Positions 3,856-34,342 are shown, counted from the first letter of the stretch. The stretch is DNA of 64,000 nt from Patescibacteria group bacterium (GCA_041650915.1 JBAZKE010000001.1:547097-611096), one strand, 5' to 3'. The notes: a model not told the origin generated them from the sequence alone. Program-made: numbers and translations.

Positions 3856-3859
3856 ACGA

Positions 3860-4903: not shown

Positions 4904-4980
4904 ATCAGAGTACCATAAAAGTCTCTATTTTGCAAGAAGGATTTGTATCCGCGGATAGGGATACAAGTATTTTTCAAATC

Positions 4981-6177
4981 CTAACGCTTGAGCAAGTGTA
5001 TCATTTGGACCGCACTTTCGTGCCAGGAAAACTCTTTAGAACGTTTGCGCCCCCGTTCTATGAGCGCAGTACGATAGCCATCGTCCGTCAATACACGATT
5101 GATACCGTTGGCGATTGATTGCGGATCGTCCGGATCTACGAGCATCGCCGCATCCCCGGCGACTTCTTTCATTGCTCCCCGGTTCGATGTAATGACAGGG
5201 GTGCCGCACGACATTGATTCAATGATTGGGATACCAAAACCCTCATACCGTGAAGGGAAGATAAACATTTTCGCTCCACACATTAGGAACGGCAGGTCGA
5301 TTTCGTCCACCCAACCGGGTAGAATAACATCGTCGTCGAGCCGTTCCGATAGAATACTTTTTTTAATTGCATCAAACCCATAGCCCGGTTTTCCGGCCAA
5401 AACAAGTTTTACGCTGTCAGAGTTTTGCTGGCGTTTATACAAAGAAAAACCTTTTATGATAGTATCTACGTTTTTTTTGTATTCGATCCGACCGATATAT
5501 AAAATATAAGAGCTGAAAATAGAGTATTTACGTACAATGCAATTTATTCGTGTTTGATCCTCTCGACGATAGTACTGTTTTCCAGGGGCGGGATAAACTA
5601 CATGAATACGGTCGCCTGCGATCGTAAGTTTTTTCTGGATTTCCCTTTTTGAAAATTCAGAAACTGTAGTAATAGCTGACGCTTTTTTTTTGGCAAGGCG
5701 GGCAGACCAGCGATGGTAGTCAAGCTCGGTCGTGCTGTAGCTACCGCACGAAATAATTTTTACCAGTAGCTTGATGAGGGATTTGAGGATTTTATTGTTC
5801 GGTCCGATGGTCTTTGTGGAGTATAAGTGTGCGTATTCTTCAAACCCGACATCGTGCAGCGTGGTCACTGTCTTTTTTGGGCATATGACCGGGATCGTAT
5901 GCGCAGGCACAAAGAGTGCGTCAGGCTTCCTCACGAGCATCTCGAGAGCAAGCCGAAGCTGTGTCCATAGAATTTTCGGTGGCCACGTAAGTACCCTACT
6001 GGAAAAATTTGGGGGTAATTTTGAGAGCTCGCCCTTGAGCTCTTCCTTCGAATATAAAATAAACTGATCACGCGGATCAGCTACTTTTTTTATTTCCTCA
6101 ATAAGATAGAAAGCGTACCACTCCGTACCCGTTTTGCAGTCTACGTTGGCACGTGAAGCGTCAATCCCAATAATCAT
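4981..6177 (-). CDS. Glycosyltransferase, family 4 (GT-B, Glycos_transf_1).
   Basis: C-terminal EGFGIPIIESMSCGTPVITSNRGAMKEVAG is the GT4 signature region. Confidence 0.7.
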   Translation of the reverse strand: MIIGIDASRANVDCKTGTEWYAFYLIEEIKKVADPRDQFILYSKEELKGELSKLPPNFSSRVLTWPPKILWTQLRLALEMLVRKPDALFVPAHTIPVICPKKTVTTLHDVGFEEYAHLYSTKTIGPNNKILKSLIKLLVKIISCGSYSTTELDYHRWSARLAKKKASAITTVSEFSKREIQKKLTIAGDRIHVVYPAPGKQYYRREDQTRINCIVRKYSIFSSYILYIGRIEYKKNVDTIIKGFSLYKRQQNSDSVKLVLAGKPGYGFDAIKKSILSERLDDDVILPGWVDEIDLPFLMCGAKMFIFPSRYEGFGIPIIESMSCGTPVITSNRGAMKEVAGDAAMLVDPDDPQSIANGINRVLTDDGYRTALIERGRKRSKEFSWHESAVQMIHLLKR

Positions 6178-20956: not shown

Positions 20957-22783
20957 TTAAGAAAGAATAGCTTTTATCCGGCGAATTCCGCTTGAAGACG
21001 ATTTTTCGGATTGAATGTGAAAATTACCGAGTTCTGACGTATTCTTCACATGTGGACCTCCGCACAATTCTTTAGAAAAATCACCTATAGAATAAACAGT
21101 AACTTTCTCAGGGTATTTTTCCTTAAAGAAAGAAAGTGCCCCGGATTTTACTGCATCGTCATAAGGCACTTCTTCGGAAGTTACCATGTAATTTTTTTTG
21201 ATGATCTCATTAACGAGGCGTTCTATTTTATTTTTTTCGTCTTCAGTCAATTTCGAATGGTGCTCAAAGTCAAAACGAAGCCGTTCGGGATTGATATCCG
21301 ATCCTTGCTGGCGAACATGAGGGCCAAGTACCGTACGGAGAGCCTGATGCAGTAGATGTGTGGCTGTGTGGTACCGTGTCATCAACGTTCTATCACTATC
21401 GGATAATTCTTTACTGTTTAGACCATGGCCGCCAAATTTATTTTCCGCCCCTGCACGTGAAAGTTTTTGGTGCTTCATAATTTCTCGGTGAAATCCTTCA
21501 CTATCGAATGTAAACCCTTCCCGCTTCAGCCGTTCTTCAGAAATTCCATACGTAGAATATAGGATAAAAGCTTCTTCCGCAGTTAATTTTCGCGTTGATG
21601 GCCCAGTAGAAACATCATGCTTAGTTTGAGTCTTGAGATGAATGATTTTATCAGCAATTTCGTGCACATTGAGGTTGAGTATTTTTTGATATCCAGACAA
21701 TTCTTTATTCATTTTTTCCGCTAAAGAATTTCGCTCTCGTTTGATCATCGGGTACTGCTTCTCATAAATTGACGCAACAGTATCGACAATTAAGGTTAGA
21801 TTAAAACGGGGATGCAAGTACTGATCGAGTGCACGCCGAAAAACTCTTCGTAGTATATATCCCTGCTCTTTATTACTGAAATTAATTCCATCAGATAATA
21901 AAAAAACCGATGCTTTAAAGTGATCGGCAGCAATACGGCAGCGGATAGCATCCTCAATCAAATTTGTAGAACCAAAATTGGGATCGTCTAAAATTAATTT
22001 TATGAGCGGTGAAAAAAGATCAGTTTCAAAAATGCTTTTTTTCCCCTGAAGAATCAGCGCAAGCCGTTCTAGTCCCATGCCAGTATCAATATTTTTACCA
22101 GGCAGTTCTTTAATTTTACCTCTGGCATCCATATGGAATTCCATGAAAACTAAATTCCATAATTCCATAAATCTGCCACACTCGCAATTTGGAAGGCACT
22201 GTTTTCCTCGTAAACAAGGTTTTCCGGTAAAATCATAGTGGAGTTCTGAACACGGGCCACATGGGCCTGATTTACCGGGAGGGCCCCACCAATTGTCATC
22301 CTTGCCAAAACCAATAATACGCTCAGTGGGCAAATATTTTTGCCAAAATTTAAAGGCCTCAGTATCTTTTGCAATTTCACTGCTTCCGCTATAATATGTT
22401 GCCCATAACTGATGTGGATTAATTTTTATAATTTTAGTCAGAAAAGTCCAAGAAAGATAAATGGCTTCTTCTTTGAAGTAATTTCCGATAGAAAAATTCC
22501 CAAGCATTTCAAAAAAAGTATTGTGGTACGGATCTCCTACTTCTTCAATATCCGAAGTTCTAAAAGACCGTTGTATGGAAACAAGCTTGGTGTTGCCAAA
22601 TTGTTTTTGAGCATCCTTAATTCCCATCAGATATGGCTTAAATTGCTGCATCCCTGCTGTTGTTAAAAGCACTGATGGATCATCTTGAGGCCACAGTGAA
22701 GAAGAATCAACTAAGGTATGCGAAAACTTCTTATTTTTTATAAAAAAACTTATAAATTTCTGCCGTATTTTATTGGAATTCAT
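20957..22783 (-). CDS. alaS: Alanyl-tRNA synthetase, short form (608 aa) lacking the C-Ala domain.
   Basis: The N-terminus has the WPQDDPSVLLTTAGMQQFKP class II core. The editing domain is present (HTATHLL...CGGPHV). The protein ends about 25 aa after it. Confidence 0.8.
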   Translation of the reverse strand: MNSNKIRQKFISFFIKNKKFSHTLVDSSSLWPQDDPSVLLTTAGMQQFKPYLMGIKDAQKQFGNTKLVSIQRSFRTSDIEEVGDPYHNTFFEMLGNFSIGNYFKEEAIYLSWTFLTKIIKINPHQLWATYYSGSSEIAKDTEAFKFWQKYLPTERIIGFGKDDNWWGPPGKSGPCGPCSELHYDFTGKPCLRGKQCLPNCECGRFMELWNLVFMEFHMDARGKIKELPGKNIDTGMGLERLALILQGKKSIFETDLFSPLIKLILDDPNFGSTNLIEDAIRCRIAADHFKASVFLLSDGINFSNKEQGYILRRVFRRALDQYLHPRFNLTLIVDTVASIYEKQYPMIKRERNSLAEKMNKELSGYQKILNLNVHEIADKIIHLKTQTKHDVSTGPSTRKLTAEEAFILYSTYGISEERLKREGFTFDSEGFHREIMKHQKLSRAGAENKFGGHGLNSKELSDSDRTLMTRYHTATHLLHQALRTVLGPHVRQQGSDINPERLRFDFEHHSKLTEDEKNKIERLVNEIIKKNYMVTSEEVPYDDAVKSGALSFFKEKYPEKVTVYSIGDFSKELCGGPHVKNTSELGNFHIQSEKSSSSGIRRIKAILS

Positions 22784-22858: not shown

Positions 22859-23932
22859 TTATGTTATAACTCCCCCACCCAGAAGAACATTTCTCAAATA
22901 AAAAACTGCGAACTGTCCCGGAGTAATTGCACGTTGACTATGCTTAAAATTTACACATAAAAAATTACCTATTTTGTGTACAATGCACGCTTGAGCAGGC
23001 TGGCGATAGCGGATTTTTACGGAACACTTTAACGGAAATATCGGTTCGTTTCCAGCAATCCAATTAGCATGGCTTACTTGGGTAGTTTTCGAGTATAAAC
23101 TTTTATGCCGTAAGCCGTGAGCGACTATCAATTCGTTTTTTCGATGATTTTTTTGCACAATATAATATGGGATCCCCCCGCCAATTCCAATGCCATGACG
23201 TTGGCCGCACGTATATTGCATCAATCCCTGATGTACGCCAATAATTTTTCCGGAAGTGGAAATAATTTTTCCCGGTTTAGATTTAATGTGCTCATTAATA
23301 AATTGTTTAAACTTAATGTTCCCAATAAAACAAATTCCCTGACTATCTTTTTTATTGTGCACATGAAGTCCGGCGCGTCGAGCAATACTTCTGATGTATT
23401 CTTTTTTATACATGCCAACAGGAAACAATGAATAACGCAATTGCTGCTGATTTAACAAAGCCAGAAAATATGACTGATCCTTGTTTAAGTCTTTTGCCTT
23501 TTTTAGGATATTTCGTTCGTCTTTTCCATGTAATTCAGTTATTTTTTGAACATAGTGTCCCGTCGCAATATAATTTGCACCGAGTTTGCGCATTTTATCG
23601 AGAAATACTCCAAATTTAATTTCACGATTGCAGAGCATATCAGGATTTGGGGTAATCCCGTTCTTATATCCATTAAGTAGGTAGGATACAATTTTTTTTC
23701 TATATTCATCCTCGAATATTTCAACCCGTGAAGGTATGCGTATTGTTTTGCAGATGATATGAAAATCTTTTAAATCCTTTTTCCAAGGGCATATACCCGA
23801 GAATGGATCGCTCCAATTCTTCATATACACACCAATTACTTTATATCCTTGCCTTTTCAACAGCAGAGCGGCAACAGAAGAATCCACGCCTCCGGACATT
23901 GCTACAAACACGTTTTTATTAATTTTTGGCAT
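22859..23932 (-). CDS. mnmA: tRNA-specific 2-thiouridylase.
   Basis: The PP-loop VFVAMSGGVDSSVAA, catalytic cysteines and the overall length match MnmA. Confidence 0.85.
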   Translation of the reverse strand: MPKINKNVFVAMSGGVDSSVAALLLKRQGYKVIGVYMKNWSDPFSGICPWKKDLKDFHIICKTIRIPSRVEIFEDEYRKKIVSYLLNGYKNGITPNPDMLCNREIKFGVFLDKMRKLGANYIATGHYVQKITELHGKDERNILKKAKDLNKDQSYFLALLNQQQLRYSLFPVGMYKKEYIRSIARRAGLHVHNKKDSQGICFIGNIKFKQFINEHIKSKPGKIISTSGKIIGVHQGLMQYTCGQRHGIGIGGGIPYYIVQKNHRKNELIVAHGLRHKSLYSKTTQVSHANWIAGNEPIFPLKCSVKIRYRQPAQACIVHKIGNFLCVNFKHSQRAITPGQFAVFYLRNVLLGGGVIT

Positions 23933-23988: not shown

Positions 23989-25293
23989 TTATAAATTATC
24001 TATAACTTCTTTAAGAAATTTCATTCTTGGAGAAACAAATTCATCCTGGGTAATTCTAGAAGCCGCATACATTGCATTTTGTGTTTTATGTTTTTGCCGG
24101 TGCTGGTATTTTCTTGGATAGTTATTTTCGATGCTTCCATTAGGAAGTATAAATACGCTGTATTTTTTTAGCATTTCAATTAAGCTCACTTCCGGTTCTG
24201 TAAATCTCATCTGAATTTTTTTCTGAATAATATTAAGGCCGGTATCATAAAGAGCATCGCGATCAAGTAAAACACAGTATGGCAAATCAAAAAGATCAAG
24301 AACATCCGTATATACGTCAATATTACTCTTACCGTAAACTTGGATTACCTTAATATCTTTTGTACCAGTATAAAATTTATTAATTAATTCCCGCATTAAA
24401 ATGTGATCAGACGGTCCTTCCACGAGCAGGACTTTATCCGCAAAAAACATTTCAGTATTATCGGCATTAAGCTCCTGTCTCAGTCTCTCGTAATTTATCC
24501 TTTTTCCGGTGAGTCTTGGAGAGTGAACTTTAGTAGTGTCACCTTCTTTTGTTACGCGAAAAATTCGGTGTAAATTTTCTGGACGAACGAAATTTGTCGA
24601 GTGGGTCGTTAAAAAAATTTGATTATCCAGGTTTCTTTCCTCCAAAATACTTATAAGTTTCTTAATAAGTGCTGGATGGAGGTGCACTTCAGGTTCTTCG
24701 AGTAATAAAACGGAGTATACTGGGTGGAAGAGGTACAAGAGTATTTTAAAAACCTGCCGAAATCCCGCACCGAGGCGCTCGTAGGGGCGCGTGGCGCCTT
24801 CATGCTCAATCGTGCTTGAAGTGAACAGTTTTCTATCGATCATAATTTGGGGAATGTACTGCTGCAATGTACGATGAAACAGCTCAAATTGATCGGGATA
24901 TTGTACTACTAAACTCTCAAAATCATGCTGCACTTTTTGAATTGAAAGATGATCAGTGGCGCATATTCTTACCATACGGCTAGATAGAATTTCCTTGCCT
25001 TTGTCAGGTGAAATTTCTTTGTCATCAAGCAAAAATTTTGTAAGATCCGCGAGTTGTACCACGTCGAGTATGCTTTTTTTTCGATCGAGCGTCAGACTAA
25101 AACTAGCATGAATATCACACTCTGGATCATGAAGCCGGATGCTGTTTCCGTTGTAAAGCCTGTAGATTGAATCTAAAATGTTTGTTTTGCCTGCATTATT
25201 TGCCCCAATAAAAATATGCAGAATACCCAGGTCATGCAGAACCAGTTTTTTTATGCTCTTATACCTGTTGATGGTGATTTTTTCAAGACGCAT
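23989..25293 (-). CDS. Compact OLD-family nuclease: ABC-type ATPase fused to a TOPRIM domain.
   Basis: Walker A is FIGANNAGKTNILDS. Walker B is VLLLEEPEVHLHP, with an H-loop at TTHS. The C-terminal TOPRIM has KVLLVEGPSDHIL (catalytic Glu) and a DxD in VLLDRDALYD. Confidence 0.7.
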   Translation of the reverse strand: MRLEKITINRYKSIKKLVLHDLGILHIFIGANNAGKTNILDSIYRLYNGNSIRLHDPECDIHASFSLTLDRKKSILDVVQLADLTKFLLDDKEISPDKGKEILSSRMVRICATDHLSIQKVQHDFESLVVQYPDQFELFHRTLQQYIPQIMIDRKLFTSSTIEHEGATRPYERLGAGFRQVFKILLYLFHPVYSVLLLEEPEVHLHPALIKKLISILEERNLDNQIFLTTHSTNFVRPENLHRIFRVTKEGDTTKVHSPRLTGKRINYERLRQELNADNTEMFFADKVLLVEGPSDHILMRELINKFYTGTKDIKVIQVYGKSNIDVYTDVLDLFDLPYCVLLDRDALYDTGLNIIQKKIQMRFTEPEVSLIEMLKKYSVFILPNGSIENNYPRKYQHRQKHKTQNAMYAASRITQDEFVSPRMKFLKEVIDNL

Positions 25294-25304
25294 TTCTAAA
25301 AAAT

Positions 25305-25757
25305 TTACGCATACAGTTTATAAAAAAAATCTTCCAATGCGCTACGTTGTGCTTGGTTTGGACTGATTTTAGTTCTCTTTTTTTTAATTCTTTTTATCGC
25401 ATCTTGAGGCGTAAGACCGTAGTGAAGAATATAGTATGCTGCAACTAAAGTTGGCGCGCGTCAGCGTCCTTCGTTACAATGAACATAGCAGCGCATTTTT
25501 TGTGCAATGAGGTCTTCAATAAAATGTGATCCGATCATGAGCTGCACAGGAGACGGAGCAGTAAAATCAACTGTCGGAAGCCACAAAAATGATTCAACGC
25601 CTGATGGTGAATCTTCTTTTTCCTGCTGAAGGTCAATATCAGCTTTAATCCCCTTTTTTAAAAGCAACTCAAAATGTTTTTTACAGCAAATGCTGGTGCC
25701 GATATACAAGTACGGTTCGATGCGCGTATAGTTCAAATGGCGTTCGTTGGTTGTCAT
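25305..25757 (-). pseudogene. Dual-specificity (Cys-based, CX5R) protein phosphatase gene interrupted by one in-frame TGA in the P-loop.
   Basis: The ORF 25461-25757 ends ...YVHCNEGR then TGA. Reading through in the same frame continues RAPTLVAAYYILHYGLTPQDAIKRIKKKRTKISPNQAQRSALEDFFYKLYA then TAA at 25305. The readthrough reconstitutes a canonical 150-aa DSP (HCxxGx[G]R + AYLM-like helix). The TGA occupies the conserved Gly position, so it is one substitution from GGA. Confidence 0.6.
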
Positions 25758-25850
25758 GAATATCGTATCTTAATGGAATAAATTGACTATAGCATGTATA
25801 TGCATCATTAAAAAGGCTGTGGAGACAAGCTTGCGTCCCCCTCCAGATAA

Positions 25851-27644
25851 CTAATCTAGCTGGATTTTTTGTCCTGGTTGGATTGGTTTACCTGGTTGTG
25901 CATGTGTTTCTGGAATGGATTTTCGGGCTTTATGCTGAAAAGGTTTATTCGTCCGAAGCATCGTCGGTGAAGACTTCATTGTATGATCAGTTATCTTACC
26001 CCTGCTCTTAAACGGTTTGGGTTGCATTGAAAACGCTTCGCTTAGTGAAATTTCTTTTTCCGGGCCTTGGACACTAACAGTTTCAAGATCACGAATAGGT
26101 ATATATTCCTTTTTTTTCTTTTCCGGTGGAAGTTTAGAAATTTTACTTATTTCAGGAGCAGAAAATGAGCGAATTGGAGGCGGATTTTGGCCATTCTTTT
26201 TTTGTGAAGCGTGGATTTTTTCAACAAATTGGTTATCCGCTTCTGCCATTGCCTTATGCATTTCGTGAACTCCGCTCCAGCGCATGATTTTATCTTCAAC
26301 AAGCTCTCGTGATTTACTATACCGTTCGCGTGAAACACTTAAAATTTTATTCTTGTTATTAGTTTTGCCTGTAAGCGGAGGCAGTGTTTTTGCGGAAAAA
26401 GGTTCTGAAGCTACCCCGTCTATCATCAGCTTCATGTAAACATTATACTTCGTTAAATTAAGAAGATCCTCCTCCATAAAAATCGGATAAAATTCTTTCG
26501 CAAGAAATTCAGCATCGGCGGCTCCGACGCGAAAACAGACAATAGTACCGATATTACCGAATACCGCGGCACGGACAGTCTCATCAAGCTGCTCGACGTA
26601 TTGATGGGCGATTATTAAATTAAGCCTGTATTTTCGCGCTTCCGATAAAATGCTCGCGAAGCTTTCAGTGGCAAAATTTTGGAATTCATCTACATACAGG
26701 TAGAAATCCTCTCGCTCATTTTCTGGTATATCGACTCTGCTCATCGCTGCGAGTTGGAGCCTGGTAATCATCATGGCACCGAGCAGAGATGAACTGTCTT
26801 CTCCGATTCTACCTTTCGAAAAATTAAGCAAAAGAATCTTTTTGTTATCCATTATTTCACGCAAATCAATGGTGCTTTTTGGCTGACCGACGATATTACG
26901 GATAACAGAACTCGATAAGAATTGCCCAACCTTATTCTGGATTGGGGCAATTGCCTCATTTCGAAATCGGTCATTATATCCGGCATATTCATCAACCCAA
27001 AAACTTTTTACAATCGGATCCGTGACTTTATCGATGACCTTCTTTCTATACTTTTTATCGACGAGAATGCGGGAAATACCGAGCATTGTCGAGCCTGGAT
27101 ACTCGAGCAGTGCAAGTATGCAATTATTGAGGATATATTCCATTCGGGCGCTCCATACCCCTTCCCATATTTTTGTAAAGACGCCCATGAGCCCAGATGC
27201 AACAAGGTGGCGCTGGTCGGGATCGACATTTTCCAGAACATTAAATCCGATGGGATACTCCAGGTCTGCCGGATTGAAATAGACCACATCATTAACCCGG
27301 TATGATGGTATGTAGTCGATAACCTTTTCAACGAGATCGCCATGCGGATCAACGAGCGCCAAACCCCGGCCTGCGCGAATATCCGAAATGACCATGTTTT
27401 CAATCACGGTTGTTTTTCCCATGCCTGTCTTGCCAATCAGATACATATGCCGACGCCTATCATCAACTCTAATGCCGAATTTTCGTGCTAAATTTCGAAA
27501 ATTCGTTTCGGCGAAGGGTGTTATTTCTCTTTCGAGGTCGGCTGTCATGGTTGTATTAAGCTGTCGGTAAATTTGGCGGCGGTACTCCTTTTTGTTCTGC
27601 AGGTGGCATGGCAATCCGCCCAAGCCTCTCCGGTGCTTGCTCAA
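25851..27644 (-). CDS. TrwB/TraD/VirD4-family (type IV coupling protein-like) P-loop ATPase: soluble, with a long basic disordered C-terminal tail.
   Basis: HMYLIGKTGMGKTTVIENMVISDIRAGRGLALVDPHGDL parallels TrwB Walker A plus the VIVDPNGD box. Walker B is FYLYVDEFQNF. There is no N-terminal TM. The start could be M33 at 27548. Confidence 0.55.
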   Translation of the reverse strand: MSKHRRGLGGLPCHLQNKKEYRRQIYRQLNTTMTADLEREITPFAETNFRNLARKFGIRVDDRRRHMYLIGKTGMGKTTVIENMVISDIRAGRGLALVDPHGDLVEKVIDYIPSYRVNDVVYFNPADLEYPIGFNVLENVDPDQRHLVASGLMGVFTKIWEGVWSARMEYILNNCILALLEYPGSTMLGISRILVDKKYRKKVIDKVTDPIVKSFWVDEYAGYNDRFRNEAIAPIQNKVGQFLSSSVIRNIVGQPKSTIDLREIMDNKKILLLNFSKGRIGEDSSSLLGAMMITRLQLAAMSRVDIPENEREDFYLYVDEFQNFATESFASILSEARKYRLNLIIAHQYVEQLDETVRAAVFGNIGTIVCFRVGAADAEFLAKEFYPIFMEEDLLNLTKYNVYMKLMIDGVASEPFSAKTLPPLTGKTNNKNKILSVSRERYSKSRELVEDKIMRWSGVHEMHKAMAEADNQFVEKIHASQKKNGQNPPPIRSFSAPEISKISKLPPEKKKKEYIPIRDLETVSVQGPEKEISLSEAFSMQPKPFKSRGKITDHTMKSSPTMLRTNKPFQHKARKSIPETHAQPGKPIQPGQKIQLD

Positions 27645-28965
27645 GTGGCAGGTCTATCGGTGCTTGTGCTTTCTTCGAATCAACTTTTTGCACGGACGGT
27701 ACTTTAACGTCGATAATCGGAAAGTGCCATATCGTCGCGAGTTCTTCGATATTGAGAACATAATTTTTCCGTCCCCTCCATAAACTCCGATAGCGGTAAG
27801 ACCAGAGTAGCCGCCGTTTTCTAGCTAATAACCTTGATTTTGCAAATAAAAATTTTGCCCTTGAAAATGTTTTCATATCTGGTCTGAATCCATTTGTATT
27901 CTGCGCGGCAAACTGATGAACAGTTCCGATAACGCCATCGAGTCCTTTTGAAAGCTGGGCGTTCTTTTTTTTTGCTCCGTAAATCATCCGCAGTTTTGAT
28001 TCATATCCAATTTTTGAAATTTTCATTCCTATCGCCTCGACAATATCCCGCTCTGCCGGTGATAAGTGCTGCATTTGGCTTGGCCAGTCCTGTATATTAC
28101 GCTGGCGTTGTGGCCCTTCCATTTCAGTAGGAGGTATTATTGAAGCGGTGAATGATTCTGACAATCCTTTCCCAATTTCTCTCGGAAAATAAAGCCAATC
28201 GGCGACCGATTTTGCGCCATCTTTTTTACCAATAAGTTTATTGATAAGCGATATACCTTTTTGCTTCCAATCTTCTGTGACCGGAGAAATGACTAGCTGA
28301 TACCAAAGATGCTCACCCGGACCCATTCTGCTCAGTATCTCCATGAGAGAAGCCATCGGATCTAAAAACTTTTGTGATAGGCTGTGTTCAAAATTCGGGT
28401 ACGTCTTAATCGGATAAAGATAATTATGGGCAAGCTTGAATTCCGTTCCCCAGACGTCGTATTCGGGATGGGGCAACTCAAGCGGTTTCGGAAGCATATC
28501 GATGTAATCTTCGACTTCCGTGATTTCTGCTTCAGGGTATTGGGCATAAATCGCGGCTTCAACTAGATCTCTGAATTTTACCGGGGTTCGTATTAGAAAT
28601 TGAATATATCCTTCAATGCTGACGATTTCCAGGCTGACCCCGAGCTGAGTTTTCCCTTCGACAAATCTTTCATACAAATCGTACGTTCGAATAAATCCAA
28701 AAATATGCGAAAATATATGTTCGACAGCTTTCGGGCTCTGCTCGTTGCCCCGGGGGATATCAATAGCAAGCAGGACAAAAGGTATTTTTGACTGATACTT
28801 ATTCTGTATATAAAGTACCCAACCTTCCCAACCGCCCCATAGGGAAACGATAATAACTATAATCCAGCCCCCGTGCAAAAATAAAAAAAACATAGCACCA
28901 AAGGGGCTGCCAACATCGGGAAATAAAGTAAGTGCTTGATCTGGTCCTACGACAAATGGATTCAT
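27556..28965 (-). CDS. Hypothetical membrane-anchored protein (N-terminal TM helices plus a roughly 400-aa soluble domain). It is the partner of the coupling-protein-like ATPase.
   Basis: The N-terminus FGAMFFLFLHGGWIIVIIVSLWGGWEGWVLY is hydrophobic. There are no recognisable catalytic motifs, and the C-terminus is basic. It lies 15 bp downstream of the regulator gene and abuts the ATPase gene. Confidence 0.4.
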   Translation of the reverse strand: MNPFVVGPDQALTLFPDVGSPFGAMFFLFLHGGWIIVIIVSLWGGWEGWVLYIQNKYQSKIPFVLLAIDIPRGNEQSPKAVEHIFSHIFGFIRTYDLYERFVEGKTQLGVSLEIVSIEGYIQFLIRTPVKFRDLVEAAIYAQYPEAEITEVEDYIDMLPKPLELPHPEYDVWGTEFKLAHNYLYPIKTYPNFEHSLSQKFLDPMASLMEILSRMGPGEHLWYQLVISPVTEDWKQKGISLINKLIGKKDGAKSVADWLYFPREIGKGLSESFTASIIPPTEMEGPQRQRNIQDWPSQMQHLSPAERDIVEAIGMKISKIGYESKLRMIYGAKKKNAQLSKGLDGVIGTVHQFAAQNTNGFRPDMKTFSRAKFLFAKSRLLARKRRLLWSYRYRSLWRGRKNYVLNIEELATIWHFPIIDVKVPSVQKVDSKKAQAPIDLPLEQAPERLGRIAMPPAEQKGVPPPNLPTA

Positions 28966-28980
28966 GTTGATCGTAGTTTG

Positions 28981-30102
28981 CTAGGATGGGACAGCAAGAC
29001 TGTACGTACCATCCTCATTTTTTTTGAATTTTGTTTTATCCGTAAGAGCAAGATGAATCGTATTTTTTTTAACGATTCTTTGTTCGAGCACTTTCTCAAC
29101 AAGCTGCGATCGAGTTAACGATTCGCTAGATCTATTGAGAATGTCAATCAGTACATTGGAAACAACGCCAGGTTTATAACCCCACTCTTTCAGTGCATAG
29201 ATTCCTCGTCCGACGAGAACATATCTGCTGTTGAGAATAAGTTCATTGTGCACCGTGGGCGGATAGGCTTTACGGGTATCAAATTTGACTTCGTTTATTT
29301 TTTGAGCAATCTCTGTAAAGTGCATTGGTTTCCCATGCCGCTTTAAAACCAGATAAATTTTATCATTCATTCTTTTTGGAACAATGCTGCCCCATTCCTT
29401 CAACCCAAATTCATCAAATGGATTTCTTGATATACTATTGCTCATATTCAAGTATGACGTAACAGCTTCCTCGGTAAGCAACTGCGGATTATGTTTAAAT
29501 AAATCTGTTTCCTTAAATTGCGAAAGAATCGAACTTATTGTTGCCGGCTTGCCATTTTTTGCGATAGTATCGAAGAGCGTCTTAATAGAATCTCTTATTA
29601 AATGTATCGGGGCATGAGAAAGCTGCCAGGATTGCTTAAAAACTTCATCGGGTCTTATAGTTTTAAATTTCTTTTTTAAAAGTTCTGAAATAACAAATAA
29701 AATATTTTGCCGGTTCATTTGGCTGTCGCCTACGACCTGTAAAAGTTCAGCGAGCAGATCGTTTTCTTCCATGGCCGCACCGTGTTGTTCGAGAACCGAA
29801 TAAACAGTATTTTCGATCGAAGCGATAAGTTCATTGAAGTTTTTAAGCTGGCTAATTTTTTGTATAGCGGTTTTTTCAATTTGACGAATTCTTTCCCTGG
29901 TAACTTTATAGGTCGCACCGATTTCTTCGAGAGTCTCTTTTTCTTTCCCGAGTAATCCGAATCTGCGACGAAGAACATCTTCTTCGCGTGTAGTAAGGGC
30001 CTTTAAGAGCTGAGAGACGGTATCGCTTGGATTGAACTGCTCGATTTGATTTGTTTTTTTACTGGAGATAACCTTATCCAGTATTGAATTTCCCTCTTCC
30101 AT
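28981..30102 (-). CDS. Putative transcription factor: N-terminal sigma-70 region 4 (4.1-4.2 HTH) and a C-terminal HARE-HTH-like winged helix.
   Basis: Residues about 35-90, DTVSQLLKALTTREEDVLRRRFGLLGKEKETLEEIGATYKVTRERIRQIEKTAIQKI, closely resemble RpoD region 4. The C-terminal KIYLVLKRHGKPMHFTEIAQKI...NSRYVLVGRGIYALKEWG resembles the HARE-HTH of the RNAP delta subunit and restriction enzymes. Confidence 0.5.
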   Translation of the reverse strand: MEEGNSILDKVISSKKTNQIEQFNPSDTVSQLLKALTTREEDVLRRRFGLLGKEKETLEEIGATYKVTRERIRQIEKTAIQKISQLKNFNELIASIENTVYSVLEQHGAAMEENDLLAELLQVVGDSQMNRQNILFVISELLKKKFKTIRPDEVFKQSWQLSHAPIHLIRDSIKTLFDTIAKNGKPATISSILSQFKETDLFKHNPQLLTEEAVTSYLNMSNSISRNPFDEFGLKEWGSIVPKRMNDKIYLVLKRHGKPMHFTEIAQKINEVKFDTRKAYPPTVHNELILNSRYVLVGRGIYALKEWGYKPGVVSNVLIDILNRSSESLTRSQLVEKVLEQRIVKKNTIHLALTDKTKFKKNEDGTYSLAVPS

Positions 30103-30143: not shown

Positions 30144-30172
30144 AGTATAGCATACTTTTATTATTGTGTCAA
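30144..30172 (-). promoter_or_regulatory. Near-consensus sigma-70 promoter for the sigma-r4/HARE-HTH regulator gene.
   Basis: On the minus strand: TTGACA (complement of 30167-30172), 17 bp, then TATACT (complement of 30144-30149). This lies about 40 nt upstream of the ATG at 30102. Confidence 0.45.
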
Positions 30173-30266
30173 GATAATTCATCGTTGTAACATATTTTTT
30201 AATTTTAAGCAAGTGAACTATGGAAAAAAAAATCGCCCCATTTACGAAACGAATCTAGCAACGTTT

Positions 30267-31172
30267 TTAAATTGTTTTTTTTCGGTTTATAAAATTATGC
30301 CACACAATAAGAAATGGGCTTGCTACAAATATAGAAGAGTACGTTCCGACAATAATACCTACAATGAGGGCTAATGTGAAATTCGCTATAGATTGACCGC
30401 CAAATAAGTAGAGAGCAAGTAAAACAAGCAGAGTTGTTAATGATGTGTTAATTGATCGGATAAGTGTTTGATTAACGCTTTCATTGACTACTTCTTCAAA
30501 AGTTCTTTGGTAGCTAATTTTTAGACGTTCACGTATGCGATCGTAAACAACGATTGTATCATGAACGGAAAATCCTAATATAGTGAGAATTGCGGTAATA
30601 AAAAGCATATCGATTTCCGTGTTGAAAAATTTTCCCATGATTGCAAAAAAACCAATAACGATGGTGATATCATGAAGAAGTGCGAGGGTCGCGCCAAATC
30701 CGTAAACCCAGGATTTCACTGCTCCACTTGCTACTTTTCGAAACGCGAATGAGATATACAGTATGATAAAAATGAGTACTAATACAATTGCAATGATAGC
30801 CCGATTACGGAGCCCTCGTCCGATAGTCGGACCGATTGATTCAAAGCTCTGTTCTGTTACGGATCCGTATTCCTGGTTCAGGTTTTCCAAAATAATTTCT
30901 CGTGCAGAATTATCGATTTCCCTGAGACGCAGCGTCATATCTGTTTCACCGATGGGTTGAACGCGAACAGCTCCATATTGAAGCTTATCGACAGCTTCCT
31001 CGACCGATTGAGCTGCAGGCCGGTCTTGATTGAATTTAACCTGCATGAGAGTACCGCCAGTAAAATCAATGCCAAGTTTCAACCCTCCAGACAAAATCGC
31101 AACTATACTTGTAGCAATCATGATACCGGAGATGGTAAACCAAATTTTTCTATTTTGAATGATTTTAAACAT
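30267..31172 (-). CDS. secF: Protein translocase subunit SecF.
   Basis: GIDFTGGTLMQVKF opening and six TM helices, with the SecDF C-terminal domain. Confidence 0.85.
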   Translation of the reverse strand: MFKIIQNRKIWFTISGIMIATSIVAILSGGLKLGIDFTGGTLMQVKFNQDRPAAQSVEEAVDKLQYGAVRVQPIGETDMTLRLREIDNSAREIILENLNQEYGSVTEQSFESIGPTIGRGLRNRAIIAIVLVLIFIILYISFAFRKVASGAVKSWVYGFGATLALLHDITIVIGFFAIMGKFFNTEIDMLFITAILTILGFSVHDTIVVYDRIRERLKISYQRTFEEVVNESVNQTLIRSINTSLTTLLVLLALYLFGGQSIANFTLALIVGIIVGTYSSIFVASPFLIVWHNFINRKKTI

Positions 31173-32853
31173 TTGTACTATTCAGCTTTGATTTTAGTGC
31201 AGGATTTGACCAGCTAAACCAGTGTGGATGTTTTTCGAGCCATTGTGATACTGAAAGTCGCAAAAAAGTTCTGGTAATTGTAATTGCTGAAAACATACTC
31301 ACGACGACACCAATGCCAAGTGTAATTGCAAATCCTTTCATGATACTTGTACCGAACCACGCGAGAATAATGCAGGTGATAATACTTGAAATATTTGAGT
31401 CTCGTATGGATGGCCAGGCGCGATTGAAACCTTCTTCTACTGCTACTTTAAGGGGCTTCCCCGTACGTAGCTCTTCACGGGAACGCTCAAAAATCAATAC
31501 ATTAGCGTCTACTGCCATTCCAATTGATAGGATAAATCCCGCAATACCCGCGAGCGTAAGAGTTATCGGAATCAGCTTAAAAAGGGCAAGAATCAAAAGT
31601 GCGTAAACGATGAGCGCCAATACCGATAATAATCCAGGCAGGCGATAGTATATAATCATGAACAGTGCGACGAGTATAAGCCCTACCAACCCCGCGAAAA
31701 AACTTTTTTGGATTGACTGCTCTCCGAGCGTAGCTCCAATATTTTGTTGTGATACGAGCGTAATCGGTACTGGCAGTGCTCCAGCATTGAGCCGCTGTGC
31801 GAGTAGCTTAGCTTCTTCAAGAGAAAAACTACCGGAAATGACTGCATTTCCATCACGAATAGGTTCATTGACTCGAGGCAGTGAAATTGGAGAGCCATCA
31901 AGGTATATGCCAACAATTTTATTGACATTGCGTTCCGTGATTTGTGAAAATAATTCCTTGCCTTCCGTATCGAATTCGAGTGATACCTGTGGTTCGTTTG
32001 TATTCGGATCAAATGCAACGGCAGACCGGCTAAGATTTTTTCCCGAGAGTTCGGTATTAGCAAAATCTGTATACCCTTCGGTTGATTGCTTGGAAAAAAG
32101 TATATGGCTCGCTTGCGCCTGGTCACCATCAATTGCTGTTTTTTTTATGATGTGGTAGCCAAACTCTGTTTCAACAATCTGCGGATAGACTTCACCAATT
32201 ATAGCTTGGTCAAAAACAGTATTTGCAAATTCTGGCACCATCATATCGCGTGTGAAAAAACCGAGATCTCCGCCTCGTTGTTCGCCAGTATCAGCATCTT
32301 TGTTTCCTGGATCTTGGCTATATTCATTAGCGAGTGCACCAAAATCCGCACCGGGAGCTGTTGCGAGTGCGAGTACACTCTCAGCTTGCTTTTTTGATTC
32401 TTCATTAAGGGTGATTATCGCAGTTTTTTCTTCTTCTGTTGGCTCAACAGTCACTTCTTCTTTAAATTCGAGCAGCGGGGTCTCTCCTATCATTTGAATA
32501 GCTTCAGAAATATTGGTGATGCCTGCAAGTTCAACAATGATGCGCCATTGGCTTCCCGCTTGATTTGTCTGAACAAAAGGTTCCGATACGCCGAAAGCAT
32601 TTACCCGATTTTCTATGACATCACGCACGCCCTCAAGCGCGGCCGCCTTGTCGCTTTCTTCAATTTGTGAGGTGTCCGCATCATATACGAGGTTGGTACC
32701 ACCGAGTAAGTCAAGCCCGAGGTGCACTTTTACCTCACGAAAAAAAGTGCCAATCTTGATATCGGGTCCACTCGGATAGTCAATAAATCCAGCTACAACT
32801 GTTAATACAACGATACCTGCAAATGTAAGCCAAACTTTCTTACGCAAAGTCAT
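31165..32853 (-). CDS. secD: Protein translocase subunit SecD with an embedded parvulin-type PPIase-like domain in the periplasmic P1 region.
   Basis: The SecD core is present (LGLDLLGGTNLVY; C-terminal six-TM bundle). Residues about 135-260, ...ALATAPGADFGALANEYSQDPGNKDADTGEQRGGDLGFFTRDMMVPEFANTVFDQAIIGEVYPQIVETEFGYHIIKK..., match the PrsA/SurA parvulin signature. Confidence 0.8.
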   Translation of the reverse strand: MTLRKKVWLTFAGIVVLTVVAGFIDYPSGPDIKIGTFFREVKVHLGLDLLGGTNLVYDADTSQIEESDKAAALEGVRDVIENRVNAFGVSEPFVQTNQAGSQWRIIVELAGITNISEAIQMIGETPLLEFKEEVTVEPTEEEKTAIITLNEESKKQAESVLALATAPGADFGALANEYSQDPGNKDADTGEQRGGDLGFFTRDMMVPEFANTVFDQAIIGEVYPQIVETEFGYHIIKKTAIDGDQAQASHILFSKQSTEGYTDFANTELSGKNLSRSAVAFDPNTNEPQVSLEFDTEGKELFSQITERNVNKIVGIYLDGSPISLPRVNEPIRDGNAVISGSFSLEEAKLLAQRLNAGALPVPITLVSQQNIGATLGEQSIQKSFFAGLVGLILVALFMIIYYRLPGLLSVLALIVYALLILALFKLIPITLTLAGIAGFILSIGMAVDANVLIFERSREELRTGKPLKVAVEEGFNRAWPSIRDSNISSIITCIILAWFGTSIMKGFAITLGIGVVVSMFSAITITRTFLRLSVSQWLEKHPHWFSWSNPALKSKLNSTNV

Positions 32854-32941: not shown

Positions 32942-34342
32942 CTACTCCTGCACGAAAACTCTTGCGCCAATTGGCGTAGCATTATAAAGCCATTCAGCGT
33001 TGGGATACGAAATATTTACACAGCCATGGCTCATTCGGTGCCCAAAATTATTATGCCAATAAGCACCATGGAGCAGTCTTGAGCCGTCGAATCTCATGTT
33101 CCAGAGGGTATTCGGAAGGTAGTAATCCGGTCCGGAATACAGTTTACTGAAAATCTTTTGAGAAATCGTGAAATCACCCGGGAGAGTTGGCGTGCCGGGA
33201 AGCCCGGTGGAAACAAGGAATGTATTGACCAATTCATCGTTATCAAACGCCCACAATCGTTGCTCGGAAAGGTCAACCAGAATTTTATCGACAATGCCAT
33301 CGCCATTTTTACGTCCAGGGACGGCAAGAATTTCGCCATAACCATCTTTATCAATATCGCCTGCAGCGGGAAATATACCGCCTCGAAATTCTGATTCGTA
33401 CGGAAATAAATCATTCTTTAATCTGCCATTTGCTTCAAAAACTTTTATATGAGGGCCGCCGCCGCTGTTAGCTGCCACAATAATTTCATCGTATCCATCT
33501 GCATCCAAGTCTCCGGCGGCAACGTTAACTCCCCTGGTAAATGAATCAGGGAACGCTTTAAATTCAGCGATGATATAATCTTGTTGAACATTTACGATTT
33601 TTATCCAAGCGACATCGCCGGTTTGAACGGCAAACACCAATTCATCACTTCCTCCGTTTACTTCAGCCGAGGCGATGCTTACTCCTCCGGTAAATTCAGG
33701 ATGGAATGGAAAAATATTGGTAGGAAGTTTCTCGCCAAATCTATTAAAAGCGTACACACGAGGTTCTACGCCCGCCGATGGTGCAATTATGATCTCAGGT
33801 AATCCGGCTGCGTCTATATCAGCGACGGCAATGTTGATGCCGGATTTAATCGCAGGATCGAGTGCAAAGAAACCCGGAGTAAAGATTGGCTTGCCATATC
33901 GGTTAAATATCCTTATGTGTGATGCACCATCCGACTTTGGAGCTGTGATAATTTCAGAAAAACCGTCGCCATCCAGATCAGCACATGCTATATTTACCCC
34001 TCCTTTAAAATTTTGTTCATAAGCAAAAAAGCCGGGAGTAAATTTTGGATTTCCAAATGCATCAAAAACTCGAACTTGTGGTCCTCCGCCCAGACCTGCA
34101 CCGAGTACTATTTCTTCATACCCATTACTGTCAAGATTACAAACTGCAATTGAAGCTCCTCCCTGAAAATTGTGCGCGAATCCTAAAAAAGCCCTTTCAA
34201 ATGATAGTGGGTGTGTACTAAAAATTTTAACTTCGGGGCTCCTGAAATCCGTAGCGTACGTGCTCAACGGTAATATAAGAAGAAGGGCTGTGATAAATAT
34301 CGCACACCCTAAGTATATCGTATTTAAGCTAATTTTACCCAT
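32942..34342 (-). CDS. Secreted FG-GAP/VCBS-repeat beta-propeller fused to a C-terminal YkuD-type L,D-transpeptidase domain.
   Basis: N-terminal signal/TM. There are six or seven repeats of the form ADLDGDGFSEIITA, GDLDADGYDEIIVA and GDIDKDGYGEILAV. The C-terminal HGAYWHNNFGHRMSHGCVNIS is the LDT catalytic His...Ser-His-Gly-Cys motif. Confidence 0.65.
   Translation of the reverse strand: MGKISLNTIYLGCAIFITALLLILPLSTYATDFRSPEVKIFSTHPLSFERAFLGFAHNFQGGASIAVCNLDSNGYEEIVLGAGLGGGPQVRVFDAFGNPKFTPGFFAYEQNFKGGVNIACADLDGDGFSEIITAPKSDGASHIRIFNRYGKPIFTPGFFALDPAIKSGINIAVADIDAAGLPEIIIAPSAGVEPRVYAFNRFGEKLPTNIFPFHPEFTGGVSIASAEVNGGSDELVFAVQTGDVAWIKIVNVQQDYIIAEFKAFPDSFTRGVNVAAGDLDADGYDEIIVAANSGGGPHIKVFEANGRLKNDLFPYESEFRGGIFPAAGDIDKDGYGEILAVPGRKNGDGIVDKILVDLSEQRLWAFDNDELVNTFLVSTGLPGTPTLPGDFTISQKIFSKLYSGPDYYLPNTLWNMRFDGSRLLHGAYWHNNFGHRMSHGCVNISYPNAEWLYNATPIGARVFVQE

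Follow-up and report, generated by a model that had tools for sequence, protein, structure and literature searches.

A putative split coupling protein in a conserved operon beside secDF of Patescibacteria, with clade-specific phosphatase and OLD neighbours

Coupling proteins and the setting of the locus

Homologues of VirD4-type coupling proteins (T4CPs) are numerous in Patescibacteria, with 5,713 reported from 2,918 genomes, yet only 148 of them are encoded near virB4 (PMC12102498). T4CP genes are often distant from virB4 in bona fide systems too, and the VirB4 proteins of Patescibacteria form a separate monophyletic clade (PMC12102498). In Southlakia epibionticum the T4CP homologue was dispensable in Tn-seq and other T4SS genes were essential, and Quinonero-Coronel et al. 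(2025) left exaptation of the T4CP homologues open (PMC12102498). The dispensability in S. epibionticum argues against an obligatory T4SS role and, if the Southlakia protein is an orthologue of the ATPase described below, is odd beside the very high conservation of the latter. Orphan T4CPs of Patescibacteria are thus already known. We found no published description of a split form, a VirB4-like partner or a phylum-wide operon, and PMC12102498 makes no mention of the split form, of such a partner or of a sigma4/HARE operon beside secDF.

The stretch analysed here, referred to as the window, is 64 kb of a Patescibacteria (CPR) chromosome whose own clade is Kerfeldbacteria-like. Five minus-strand ORFs exactly fill positions 23989-30102 (Table 1), where an earlier note on this DNA had placed them. 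The gaps between them (15, 7, 93 and 12 nt) essentially matched the short gaps it had given, the flanks it had named, mnmA with alaS after the block and secF with secD before it, were recovered, and profile searches supported the domain assignments of all five proteins. The genes are co-oriented, as it had stated, but this carries no information, since the minus strand carries almost all genes between 1054 and 59556. Its description of the five genes as interrupting a housekeeping array did not hold, because three of them are themselves part of that conserved array.

Table 1. Features of the locus, in window coordinates.
Feature	Position	Strand	Basis or remark
Sigma70_r4 and HARE-HTH protein, trio gene 1	28981-30102	minus	373 aa ORF, profile search
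DUF8128 (PF26449) membrane protein, trio gene 2	27556-28965	minus	469 aa, one long N-terminal helix
T4CP-like ATPase, trio gene 3	25851-27548	minus	565 aa; TrwB_AAD_bind, DUF87, TraG-D_C
Dual-specificity Cys-phosphatase pseudogene	25306-25757	minus	150 codons, one in-frame TGA at 25461-25463
OLD nuclease	23989-25293	minus	434 aa; AAA_21/AAA_15 and OLD-like_TOPRIM
secD and secF, conserved neighbours upstream of trio	30267-32853	minus	neighbourhood comparison
mnmA, downstream flank	22859-23932	minus	neighbourhood comparison
alaS, downstream flank	20957-22783	minus	neighbourhood comparison
Terminator-like hairpin and T-run just past secF	30233-30252	minus	8-bp stem then TTTTTTTTTC
Near-consensus sigma-70-type promoter TTGACA-17-TATACT, extended-10 TG	30144-30172	minus	11/12 consensus matches
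Possible extended -10 element TGcTATAGT	25786-25794	minus	read by eye, 29 nt upstream of phosphatase ATG

The hairpin and T-run past secF separate secDF from the trio. The near-consensus promoter reported earlier before the first gene was confirmed as a consensus match, and this predicted site sits 42 nt upstream of the sigma4/HARE gene. The window held 18 promoter-like sites where shuffles gave an expectation of 17, so that this site is distinguished by its quality alone. The extended -10 element was missed by the two-hexamer promoter scan; it would possibly give the phosphatase and OLD genes a transcript of their own.

The ATPase, DUF8128 and sigma4/HARE genes

The ORF finder called the start of the ATPase at a TTG (27644) that overlaps the upstream gene, but translation probably begins at the ATG at 27548. 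The protein matched the Pfam families TrwB_AAD_bind (44.8 bits, cut-off 20.5; residues 61-367) and TraG-D_C (25.2 bits, cut-off 22), as well as the SXT_TraD and CD1115 VirD4-like models, and its family profile found TrwB (2e-7) and DotL (1.5e-5) in the PDB. It therefore has the TrwB-type P-loop nucleotide-binding domain and shares its motor with the T4CPs TrwB, VirD4 and TraD. The Walker A (GKTGMGKT) and Walker B (YVDEFQNF) motifs were invariant among the aligned relatives, and the C-terminal tail of about 130 aa was variable and of low complexity. A single-sequence AF2 model was unusable (pLDDT 36.8). More than 529 relatives were found at 55-75% identity, all of them in Patescibacteria MAGs. 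No VirB4 family match (CagE_TrbE_VirB or AAA_10) was obtained for the ATPase in Pfam or NCBIfam. Neither a relaxase nor VirB4 was among the ORFs of at least 560 aa in the 64-kb window, all of which were identified, and within the window the ATPase is not encoded together with relaxase and/or mating-pair-formation genes. In this it resembles most orphan T4CP homologues of PMC12102498, being chromosomal with neither virB4 nor a relaxase nearby. Membership in MADS, suggested by the PADLOC mad8 model, was rejected since only the generic ATPase core matched; the five-gene block held no methyltransferase or other MADS or MZA genes.

Unlike T4CPs, which carry a two-helix anchor at the N-terminus of the same chain, the ATPase has no transmembrane anchor of its own: its Walker A motif starts at residue 39, with no hydrophobic stretch before it. 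The membrane helix belongs instead to the protein encoded by the separate upstream gene, which also brings a large cytoplasmic domain, VirB4-like in fold. This protein is Pfam DUF8128 (PF26449); it had no match in NCBIfam, PADLOC or the Pfam set searched. One long helix (residues 21-60) is followed by alpha/beta domains. Its best fold matches were all VirB4/TrwK, and fold matching gave it the fold of the VirB4 N-terminal domain, the aligned part of VirB4 being unreported by the tools. A sequence-profile comparison with TrwK found no significant similarity, and the N-domain assignment thus rests on the fold scores and on collinearity in the fused proteins described below. On these grounds we read DUF8128 as the probable membrane anchor and N-domain of a split coupling protein. 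It differs from the N-domain of VirB4/TrwK (R388) and from the TrsD-type stand-alone VirB4-N-like proteins in having no detectable sequence similarity to them, in carrying its own membrane helix and in being partnered by a motor of T4CP type, not of VirB4 type.

The first gene of the trio encodes an N-terminal sigma-70 region 4 HTH (residues 32-83; Sigma70_r4, 53.6 bits), a middle part that varied between relatives in the alignment, and a highly conserved C-terminal HARE-HTH or RNAP-delta-like winged helix (HARE-HTH, 36.6 bits) with a further conserved stretch, at about 240-370. These two recognisable domains are like those of the RNAP delta subunit (RpoE, HARE-HTH) and of sigma-70 region 4. 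Unlike either delta or sigma, the protein joins both in one chain through a variable linker, and it has neither sigma regions 2 or 3 nor the acidic tail of delta. It is not a sigma-70 factor, since region 2 is absent and the RpoD and RpoS models scored far below their cut-offs. It was also rejected as an RNAP delta subunit, with 40.8 bits for TIGR04567 against a cut-off of 42 and no acidic C-terminal tail in the translation. Membership in MZA was rejected as well, since the PADLOC MzaA match was limited to sigma region 4 (residues 22-92) and the NCBIfam MzaA model gave 65 bits against a cut-off of 800.

The trio formed part of a syntenic array, secD-secF-[sigma4/HARE]-[DUF8128]-[T4CP-like ATPase], in related genomes. 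In 70 of 78 genomes the gene immediately before the ATPase was DUF8128, with a median gap of about 9 nt over 71 loci; in the other 8, DUF8128 was absent from that position. The sigma4/HARE gene preceded DUF8128 in 52 of 66 loci, and secD and secF both preceded the trio in 43 of 80. This fixed operon with a sigma4/HARE-HTH gene beside secDF sets the pair apart from the orphan T4CPs as described so far. Median identity at these loci was 66% for the ATPase core, 64% for infA, 60% for rpsM and 40% for alaS, where the ATPase figures are inflated because the 80 loci were picked by ATPase similarity. From this neighbourhood comparison, the trio appears to be an ancient operon across the ultra-small Patescibacteria.

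Fused forms of the pair were found both within and outside Patescibacteria. In another Patescibacterium (locus L083), DUF8128 (1e-23) and the ATPase (8e-120) are joined in one protein of 833 aa. A conjugative-type Bacillota plasmid, that of Shouchella clausii (NZ_CP012476), encodes an 883-aa “DUF87 domain-containing protein” in which both modules recur in unchanged order, DUF8128 at aa 48-313 (5.5e-14) and the ATPase at aa 327-864 (2e-53), by HMMs built from Patescibacteria proteins. Only the ATPase module was detected in an 812-aa T4CP of Embleya (NZ_CP108778). The Shouchella gene adjoins a replication-relaxation family gene and conjugal transfer genes; the Embleya gene is clustered with genes for a PrgI family protein, NlpC/P60, a 644-aa ATP-binding protein and a replication-relaxation family protein. 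The Shouchella and Embleya proteins are thus single chains on plasmids, beside relaxase-type (replication-relaxation) genes, whereas the modules in the window are split, chromosomal, relaxase-less and placed behind a sigma4/HARE gene. The fusions in L083 and in the Bacillota plasmid suggest that the pair is a split version of a “long” monoderm coupling protein. The adjacency, the short median gap and the two independent fusions also bear out the view that the membrane protein and the ATPase act together.

The phosphatase pseudogene and the OLD nuclease

The phosphatase gene belongs to the dual-specificity fold family (Pfam Tc-R-P, 36 bits, cut-off 27) and had no PADLOC model match. The single in-frame stop noted earlier was found again. 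The loop reads HCNEGR-stop-RAPT, with the TGA in place of the nearly invariant glycine of HCxxGxGR, and the gene accordingly has no uninterrupted HCX5R(S/T) catalytic loop. Glycine occupies this position in 16/16 aligned relatives, and a single change from GGA to TGA would explain the stop. In this genome TGA serves as an ordinary stop codon (7 of 51 genes). The phosphatase is probably inactivated here by this nonsense change in the catalytic loop; an assembly error could explain the stop.

The OLD gene is intact and short. Its product has an N-terminal ABC-type ATPase (AAA_21, 76.6 bits; AAA_15, 71.9 bits) and a C-terminal Toprim domain (OLD-like_TOPRIM, 59.4 bits, cut-off 23.2) with the catalytic acidic residues, as expected of the OLD family, and the motifs GANNAGKT, LLLEEPEVHLHP, LLVEGPSD and LLDRD were read from the translation. 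It matched PADLOC Old (4.5e-36) and, in the PDB, class-1 OLD 6p74 (1e-11) and GajA (4.5e-10). The order of ABC-type ATPase and Toprim is that of class 1 OLD (P2 Old; Thermus scotoductus OLD, 6p74) and of GajA, than which it is about 140 aa shorter. Its neighbours are the phosphatase pseudogene and mnmA. No partner of class 2-4 OLDs (the UvrD-like helicase GajB, a retron RT/ncRNA, or the DUF4435 protein AriB) was adjacent, in which it differs from the GajA of Gabija and from other partnered OLDs, and Gabija, retron-associated and PARIS membership was rejected for this reason. The retron Eco8 effector model gave 72 bits against a cut-off of 250, and an Rfam scan of the 64-kb window returned no matches. 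From its domains, the protein is most likely a class-1-like DNA-cutting enzyme of defence or DNA maintenance. Unlike genes of typical defence islands, it is fixed at one chromosomal position clade-wide and diverges like housekeeping genes.

The OLD and phosphatase genes were limited to the clade of the window, with three of the 80 ATPase-retrieved loci carrying them. All own-clade loci examined had both genes in the same order, at 51-65% identity, similar to mnmA and alaS. Within the clade, intervening genes can set them apart, both from the trio and from one another. Elsewhere, either gene has relatives that are not accompanied by the other. Judged from this distribution, the two genes appear to be lineage-specific, vertically inherited neighbours unrelated to the trio.

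One block or two parts

We consider it probable, at about 0.7, that the block consists of two unrelated, vertically inherited parts, a split-T4CP trio operon (25851-30102) and a clade-specific phosphatase/OLD pair (23989-25757). DUF8128 would supply the single membrane helix and the cytoplasmic domain of VirB4-like fold of the split T4CP, and the downstream gene its TrwB/VirD4-type ATPase motor. Anchored by DUF8128, the ATPase may assemble at the membrane as an NTP-driven ring that would receive and push a substrate, either DNA or protein. Such a ring may feed a relaxase-less Patescibacteria T4SS encoded elsewhere, or may act alone. The sigma4/HARE protein may be a partner that binds nucleic acid or RNA polymerase, or a regulator.

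The earlier note had proposed that all five genes could form a single module of a new kind, perhaps decayed, which had been inserted between mnmA and secF and would serve in defence against phages or plasmids or in the handling of DNA. The short intergenic gaps, the good promoter before the block, the recurrence of the five-gene order in the window's own clade and the matches of three proteins in PADLOC (MzaA, mad8/HerA and Old/GajA) are consistent with this proposal, which is nevertheless highly improbable and was already largely refuted by the co-occurrence analysis. The OLD and phosphatase genes are missing from 77 of the 80 loci, where the trio, found phylum-wide, is nearly universal; insertions split the block within the clade, and each of the two genes is found elsewhere without the other or the trio. 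They and the trio thus hold individual syntenic positions, the pattern that the note itself had named as speaking against its proposal. The reading of the whole block as an anti-phage system is likewise unsupported, since the MzaA match (far under its cut-off) and the mad8/HerA match cover single domains only. Nor does it look inserted or mobile. The absence of integrase and transposase from the block, already noted, was confirmed; no flanking repeats were found, and no tRNA that could serve as a target occurs in the 64-kb window. The compositional deviation that had been suggested as a check was absent, GC and GC3 of the block matching the flanks and lying within 1.6 sd of the window mean. 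All five genes diverge like their housekeeping neighbours, and the distribution follows descent.

A narrower grouping would make the phosphatase and OLD genes a two-gene system, half-decayed here, in which the phosphatase regulates the nuclease or senses for it. The two genes are adjacent, with gaps of 11-150 nt, in the window and in loci L001, L002, L081/L082, L094 and L095. At least 13 contigs are apparently common to both match lists, which suggests that both genes occur together, and the possible extended -10-like element precedes the pair. We regard such a system as rather unlikely. In L096 two opposite-strand genes lie between them, the phosphatase overlapping the ATPase stop and the OLD gene abutting mnmA. 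Some phosphatase relatives have no OLD gene with them and adjoin PMSR and rubrerythrin, or lie close to mnmA. For OLD relatives at about 40% identity the partner is DUF6938 instead. The OLD gene is intact in the window where the phosphatase is dead, and no PADLOC model recognises the phosphatase. It is more doubtful still that DUF8128 and the ATPase form a divergent split VirB4, the energising ATPase of a T4SS, and not a coupling protein. The VirB4/TrwK fold matches of DUF8128 would fit this, as would the fused forms of 833-883 aa, which have the size of VirB4 and its layout of N-domain and motor. However, the motor matched TrwB_AAD_bind, TraG-D_C, SXT_TraD, CD1115 VirD4-like, and TrwB and DotL in the PDB, and no VirB4 model. 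The Embleya cluster contains both this type of T4CP and a 644-aa ATP-binding protein (not compared with VirB4 models), and a separate monophyletic VirB4 clade has been described for Patescibacteria (PMC12102498).

The reading as a split T4CP leaves room for a trio unrelated to any T4SS, that is, a self-contained machine exapted from a T4CP. Such a machine could, for instance, move DNA or tether it at the membrane during uptake, segregation or export, and the sigma4/HARE protein would then be the subunit that recognises DNA or RNAP. We hold this reading to be unlikely, if less so than the preceding alternatives. Only 148 of the 5,713 Patescibacteria T4CP homologues are near virB4, and the Southlakia homologue is dispensable where the T4SS is essential (PMC12102498); against this, bona fide systems often have their T4CP gene at a distance from virB4 (PMC12102498). 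The 64-kb window has no VirB4-sized ATPase or relaxase, but the fused homologues were found in conjugation-type clusters. The ATPase is conserved like ribosomal proteins and the HTH protein is constantly linked to the DUF8128-ATPase pair. Together they give an FtsK-like layout of membrane part, motor and winged-helix DNA reader. Transcriptome papers on the Saccharibacterium TM7x reportedly mention FtsK, however, so that a replacement role is not required, and the substrate is a matter of inference. There is thus a small chance that the trio is a Patescibacteria-specific, T4SS-independent translocation machine. It would then be a split coupling protein that has been domesticated, with a VirB4-like domain close to the membrane, and its HTH protein would pick out DNA, or RNA polymerase engaged in transcription, to be handled there at the expense of ATP. 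If this were true, the ribosomal-protein-like conservation of the ATPase would reflect a core need of an epibiotic, biosynthetically poor lifestyle, such as the acquisition, export or segregation of nucleic acids.

Genes of the block and their setting

Five co-oriented open reading frames with short gaps and a near-consensus promoter had been described in the earlier note, and all were recovered at the same positions, on the minus strand, with spacings, in order, of 15, 7, 93 and 12 nt. However, the minus strand encodes nearly all genes between 1054 and 59556, and the gaps between them are very short; ribosomal protein genes, SecA, SecDF, a murein ligase cluster and a polysaccharide cluster are among them. 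In this genome, a shared orientation and close spacing are thus the norm and no evidence of modules. The 64-kb window had no tRNA or Rfam matches.

Features of the block and of the remaining window
Feature	Position	Strand	Description
sigma4/HARE-HTH protein	28981-30102	minus	373 aa; Sigma70_r4 (residues 32-83) and HARE-HTH
membrane protein	27556-28965	minus	469 aa; Pfam DUF8128 (PF26449), from precomputed annotation
T4CP-like ATPase	25851-27548	minus	565 aa; TrwB_AAD_bind, DUF87, TraG-D_C; PDB TrwB, DotL
phosphatase	25306-25757	minus	150 codons; dual-specificity Cys phosphatase; in-frame TGA (25461-25463) in HCNEGR*RAPT
OLD nuclease	23989-25293	minus	434 aa; AAA_21/AAA_15 and OLD-like_TOPRIM; PADLOC Old 4.5e-36
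promoter-like site	30172-30144	minus	TTGACA-17-TATACT with extended-10 TG; consensus match
terminator-like hairpin	30252-30233	minus	directly 3' of secF
SecA	49241-52018
UPF0182 membrane protein	35027-37768		913 aa; 926 bits
FG-GAP/YkuD protein	32942-34342		466 aa; L,D-transpeptidase-type; directly upstream of secD
DUF4012 protein	7194-9149		651 aa; within Wzy/polysaccharide-synthesis cluster
PilB-type ATPase	61383-63116	plus	T2SSE/MshEN; near window end

The sigma4/HARE-HTH protein scored 40.8 bits, marginally below the NCBIfam cut-off of 42 for the RNA-polymerase delta subunit. Its C-terminal HARE-HTH and the stretch following it (about residues 240-370) were the most conserved part; the region-4 helix-turn-helix was also conserved and the middle was variable. 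Homology with plasmid replication-relaxation proteins was not detected. The family name of the DUF8128 protein comes from precomputed hits only, as local copies of Pfam, NCBIfam and PADLOC gave no match even at E = 10. For the ATPase, the ATG at 27548, 7 nt past the upstream stop, is the likely start, in preference to an overlapping TTG at 27644. Elsewhere in the window, the FG-GAP/YkuD protein is kept beside secD in the close relatives L001-L006, and the PilB-type ATPase belongs to type IV pilus machinery, not to a type IV secretion system (T4SS).

Inheritance of the five genes

The ATPase was searched against one genome per GTDB species. More than 529 relatives were found, every one in Patescibacteria MAGs, some of which bear automatic organism names that are unreliable. 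The 80 best-matching loci (55-75% identity) were probed by tblastn and HMM searches with the five proteins of the block and with the flanking genes. Of the 78 loci having enough sequence, 70 had DUF8128 immediately 5' of the ATPase, at a median gap of about 9 nt; in the other eight it was not adjacent. The sigma4/HARE gene was upstream of DUF8128 in 52 of 66 loci, and secD and secF were found upstream of the position of that gene in 43 of 80. OLD and phosphatase were found in only three of these ATPase-selected loci (L001-L003).

Among the eight loci without an adjacent DUF8128, five (L015, L021, L027, L029 and L032) encode, a few genes upstream of the ATPase, a conserved protein of some 730 aa that matches no Pfam family; three of these five also have an upstream NUDIX protein (about 190 aa). 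The upstream gene was ftsZ in L069 and an MraY-like glycosyltransferase in L030.

The closest named relatives of the window's DUF8128 protein are from Candidatus Kerfeldbacteria, and further loci of the window's Kerfeldbacteria-like clade (L081/82, L094-L096) were obtained via protein identity. The clade keeps the order trio-phosphatase-OLD-mnmA-alaS, with separations: three LiaF-like genes stand between ATPase and phosphatase in L095, and two opposite-strand genes between phosphatase and OLD in L096. In the next closest genomes (L004-L006) the ATPase is followed by mnmA within 0.1-1 kb, without OLD or phosphatase. The ATPase-mnmA interval is a small gene-gain hotspot in the clade (L095, 4594-6458; L096, 4897-6842), the L095 inserts being membrane genes and both L096 inserts being unassigned in function.

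Within the clade, identities of OLD (51-56%) and phosphatase (58-65%) were like those of mnmA (54-59%) and alaS (57-61%). The earlier note had proposed checking the block for deviating composition; for each of the five genes, GC and GC3 deviated from the window mean by no more than 1.6 sd and matched those of the neighbours. No repeats flanked the block. An island was therefore dropped, composition, repeats and tRNA each being negative, and so was a phage origin, with a single partial match among 2.9 million viral contigs. Given the restriction of OLD and phosphatase to one clade, their separations within the clade, their housekeeping-like divergence, the matching GC and GC3 and the lack of flanking repeats, the block is a vertically inherited composite of an ancient trio and two separable clade-specific neighbours, and not an insertion. 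The observation behind the earlier note thus holds, and its interpretation does so in part: DUF8128 and ATPase do co-occur, but OLD and phosphatase rarely accompany them and the trio is distributed far more widely, so that a single five-gene novel defence island is not supported.

The position of the phosphatase stop is occupied by Gly in 16 of 16 aligned relatives, within HCxxGxGRAPT, and one GGA to TGA change would explain it. Some CPR lineages read UGA as Gly. Such recoding was rejected here, because TGA is an ordinary stop in this genome (ending 7 of 51 genes) and table 11 leaves long ORFs uninterrupted. A pseudogene is the most likely reading, an assembly error being the alternative, and the deposited annotation calls a 98-aa fragment here. 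In OLD, the Walker A, Walker B-type and Toprim acidic motifs read from the translation were intact, and its PDB matches were class-1 OLD 6p74 and GajA. Since it is without the partners that define classes 2-4, it is classed from its sequence as class-1-like, though about 140 aa shorter than the solved examples.

That phosphatase and OLD form a two-gene system is improbable, as each occurs without the other in relatives and the pair is split by the opposite-strand genes of L096. Phosphatase relatives without OLD were found near mnmA, or next to genes for PMSR and rubrerythrin. OLD relatives of about 40% identity, from Komeilibacteria among other lineages, are located elsewhere; there, a DUF6938 protein of about 445 aa has a stop overlapping the OLD start by 4 nt (L088, 4676-7281; L089 and L090, 4655-7350), and the pair is followed by an EamA transporter. 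DUF6938 had no match in PADLOC, and DUF6938 with OLD could be an undescribed two-gene OLD system. In the window and in seven loci of its clade (L001-L003, L081, L094-L096) OLD lies beside mnmA, and housekeeping proteins of the clade are just 55-60% identical. A position kept for so long is atypical if OLD is a defence gene, as presumed, and is a hint of a role on DNA closer to housekeeping in these reduced genomes.

DUF8128 and the ATPase as a probable split coupling protein

The phylum-wide adjacency with tiny gaps, together with two fusions, shows at the level of sequence that DUF8128 and the ATPase correspond to two halves of one protein. In the Patescibacteria locus L083, residues 67-391 of an 833-aa protein resemble DUF8128 (1e-23) and residues 400-817 the ATPase (8e-120, 44% identity). 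On a plasmid of Shouchella clausii (Bacillota), an 883-aa "DUF87 domain-containing protein" matched both HMMs, that of DUF8128 over residues 48-313 (5.5e-14) and that of the ATPase over residues 327-864 (2e-53); its gene adjoins genes for conjugal transfer and one of the replication-relaxation family. With its motor 44% identical to the window ATPase, the L083 protein probably represents a second paralogous Patescibacteria lineage. Its gene (3531-6032, minus strand) adjoins dnaX fragments and is near a phosphatase relative and mnmA.

The motor is of the T4CP type by family and PDB matches; Pfam, NCBIfam and PDB all pointed to T4CP and not to VirB4. Walker A (GKTGMGKT) and Walker B (YVDEFQNF) were invariant in 22 aligned homologues. 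Median identity of the ATPase core was 66%, a figure inflated by the choice of loci through ATPase similarity, against 60% for rpsM, 64% for infA and 40% for alaS in the same loci. A single-sequence structure prediction of the ATPase (pLDDT 36.8) was discarded. Most orthologues outside the clade carry a zinc-ribbon-like CxxC...F.PDG.RPV.CK.C in the variable C-terminal tail (for example in L010, L022 and L067); the tail of the window ATPase (25851-26250) is Cys-free, Lys/Pro-rich and without this motif. An 812-aa T4CP of the same type was found on an Embleya plasmid, clustered with a PrgI family protein, a 644-aa ATP-binding protein, a replication-relaxation family protein and an NlpC/P60 protein. 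The closest relative seen outside Patescibacteria is a 395-aa stand-alone core homologue (40% identity, HMM 7e-123) on Sulfitobacter mediterraneus plasmid NZ_CP081110 (L091, 5986-7173), lying among recombinase/transposase genes without DUF8128.

At E <= 0.001, the DUF8128 family comprised 3,148 clusters (50% identity) among 1.84 billion library proteins. The AlphaFold2 model of DUF8128, built from 34 homologues (pLDDT 77.5), showed a single long helix near the N-terminus (21-60) and, after it, alpha/beta domains. The only strong Foldseek matches were ten chains of R388 TrwK/VirB4, eight with E <= 0.001 (best 1.2e-05) and probability 1.00, the two others with 0.96 and 0.91. Single-sequence and profile searches of the PDB gave no match and aligning the DUF8128 profile with R388 TrwK by hhalign gave no significant score, so the link to VirB4 is structural only. 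The VirB4 C-domain is homologous with T4CP motors. From this homology, and from the fusions being collinear with an N-domain followed by a motor, we infer that the match would fall in the VirB4 N-terminal domain. The pair thus consists of a membrane-anchored VirB4-N-like protein and a T4CP-type ATPase with intact predicted catalytic motifs, translationally close here and fused elsewhere.

Relation to type IV secretion

DUF8128 and the ATPase may assemble as a membrane-bound, NTP-driven ring, acting as a substrate receptor or translocase. Such a ring could serve a relaxase-less Patescibacteria T4SS encoded elsewhere, or work alone, and the sigma4/HARE protein may be a DNA- or RNAP-binding partner or regulator. 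Replacement of FtsK by the trio was considered and down-weighted; FtsK is reportedly mentioned in TM7x transcriptome papers. That the fused homologues on plasmids lie among conjugation genes speaks for a link to the T4SS and counts against the trio being an independent machine. That alternative, which we consider rather unlikely, draws on the extreme conservation of the ATPase and on the report of Quinonero-Coronel et al. 2025 (PMC12102498), where only 148 of 5,713 VirD4-type T4CP homologues from 2,918 Patescibacteria genomes were near virB4, and where the Southlakia epibionticum homologue was non-essential in Tn-seq while other T4SS genes were essential. Relaxases were nearly absent from Patescibacteria in the same study, and exaptation of the T4CP homologues "cannot be ruled out" (PMC12102498). 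The window ATPase is evidently one of these orphan homologues. In the literature, which was incompletely covered, no paper was found on DUF8128, the split architecture, a VirB4-like partner fold or the sigma4/HARE operon, and the main text of Wang et al. 2023 does not mention T4CP.

At the core of the block is a coupling protein that has been split and domesticated; its partner is VirB4-like, and the operon occurs across the phylum. For annotation, short-gapped, co-oriented CPR genes should not be taken for islands. Patescibacteria account for much of bacterial diversity and rely on host cells, and their T4SS is reportedly the first shown to be essential for its own carrier bacterium. The orphan T4CP is here a two-gene split protein whose partner was hitherto a Pfam DUF entry only. 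The split pair, the VirB4-like fold and the phylum-wide operon with the sigma4/HARE protein suggest how T4CP and VirB4 architectures relate, and offer genetics a concrete unit to test in Saccharibacteria, which have become tractable.
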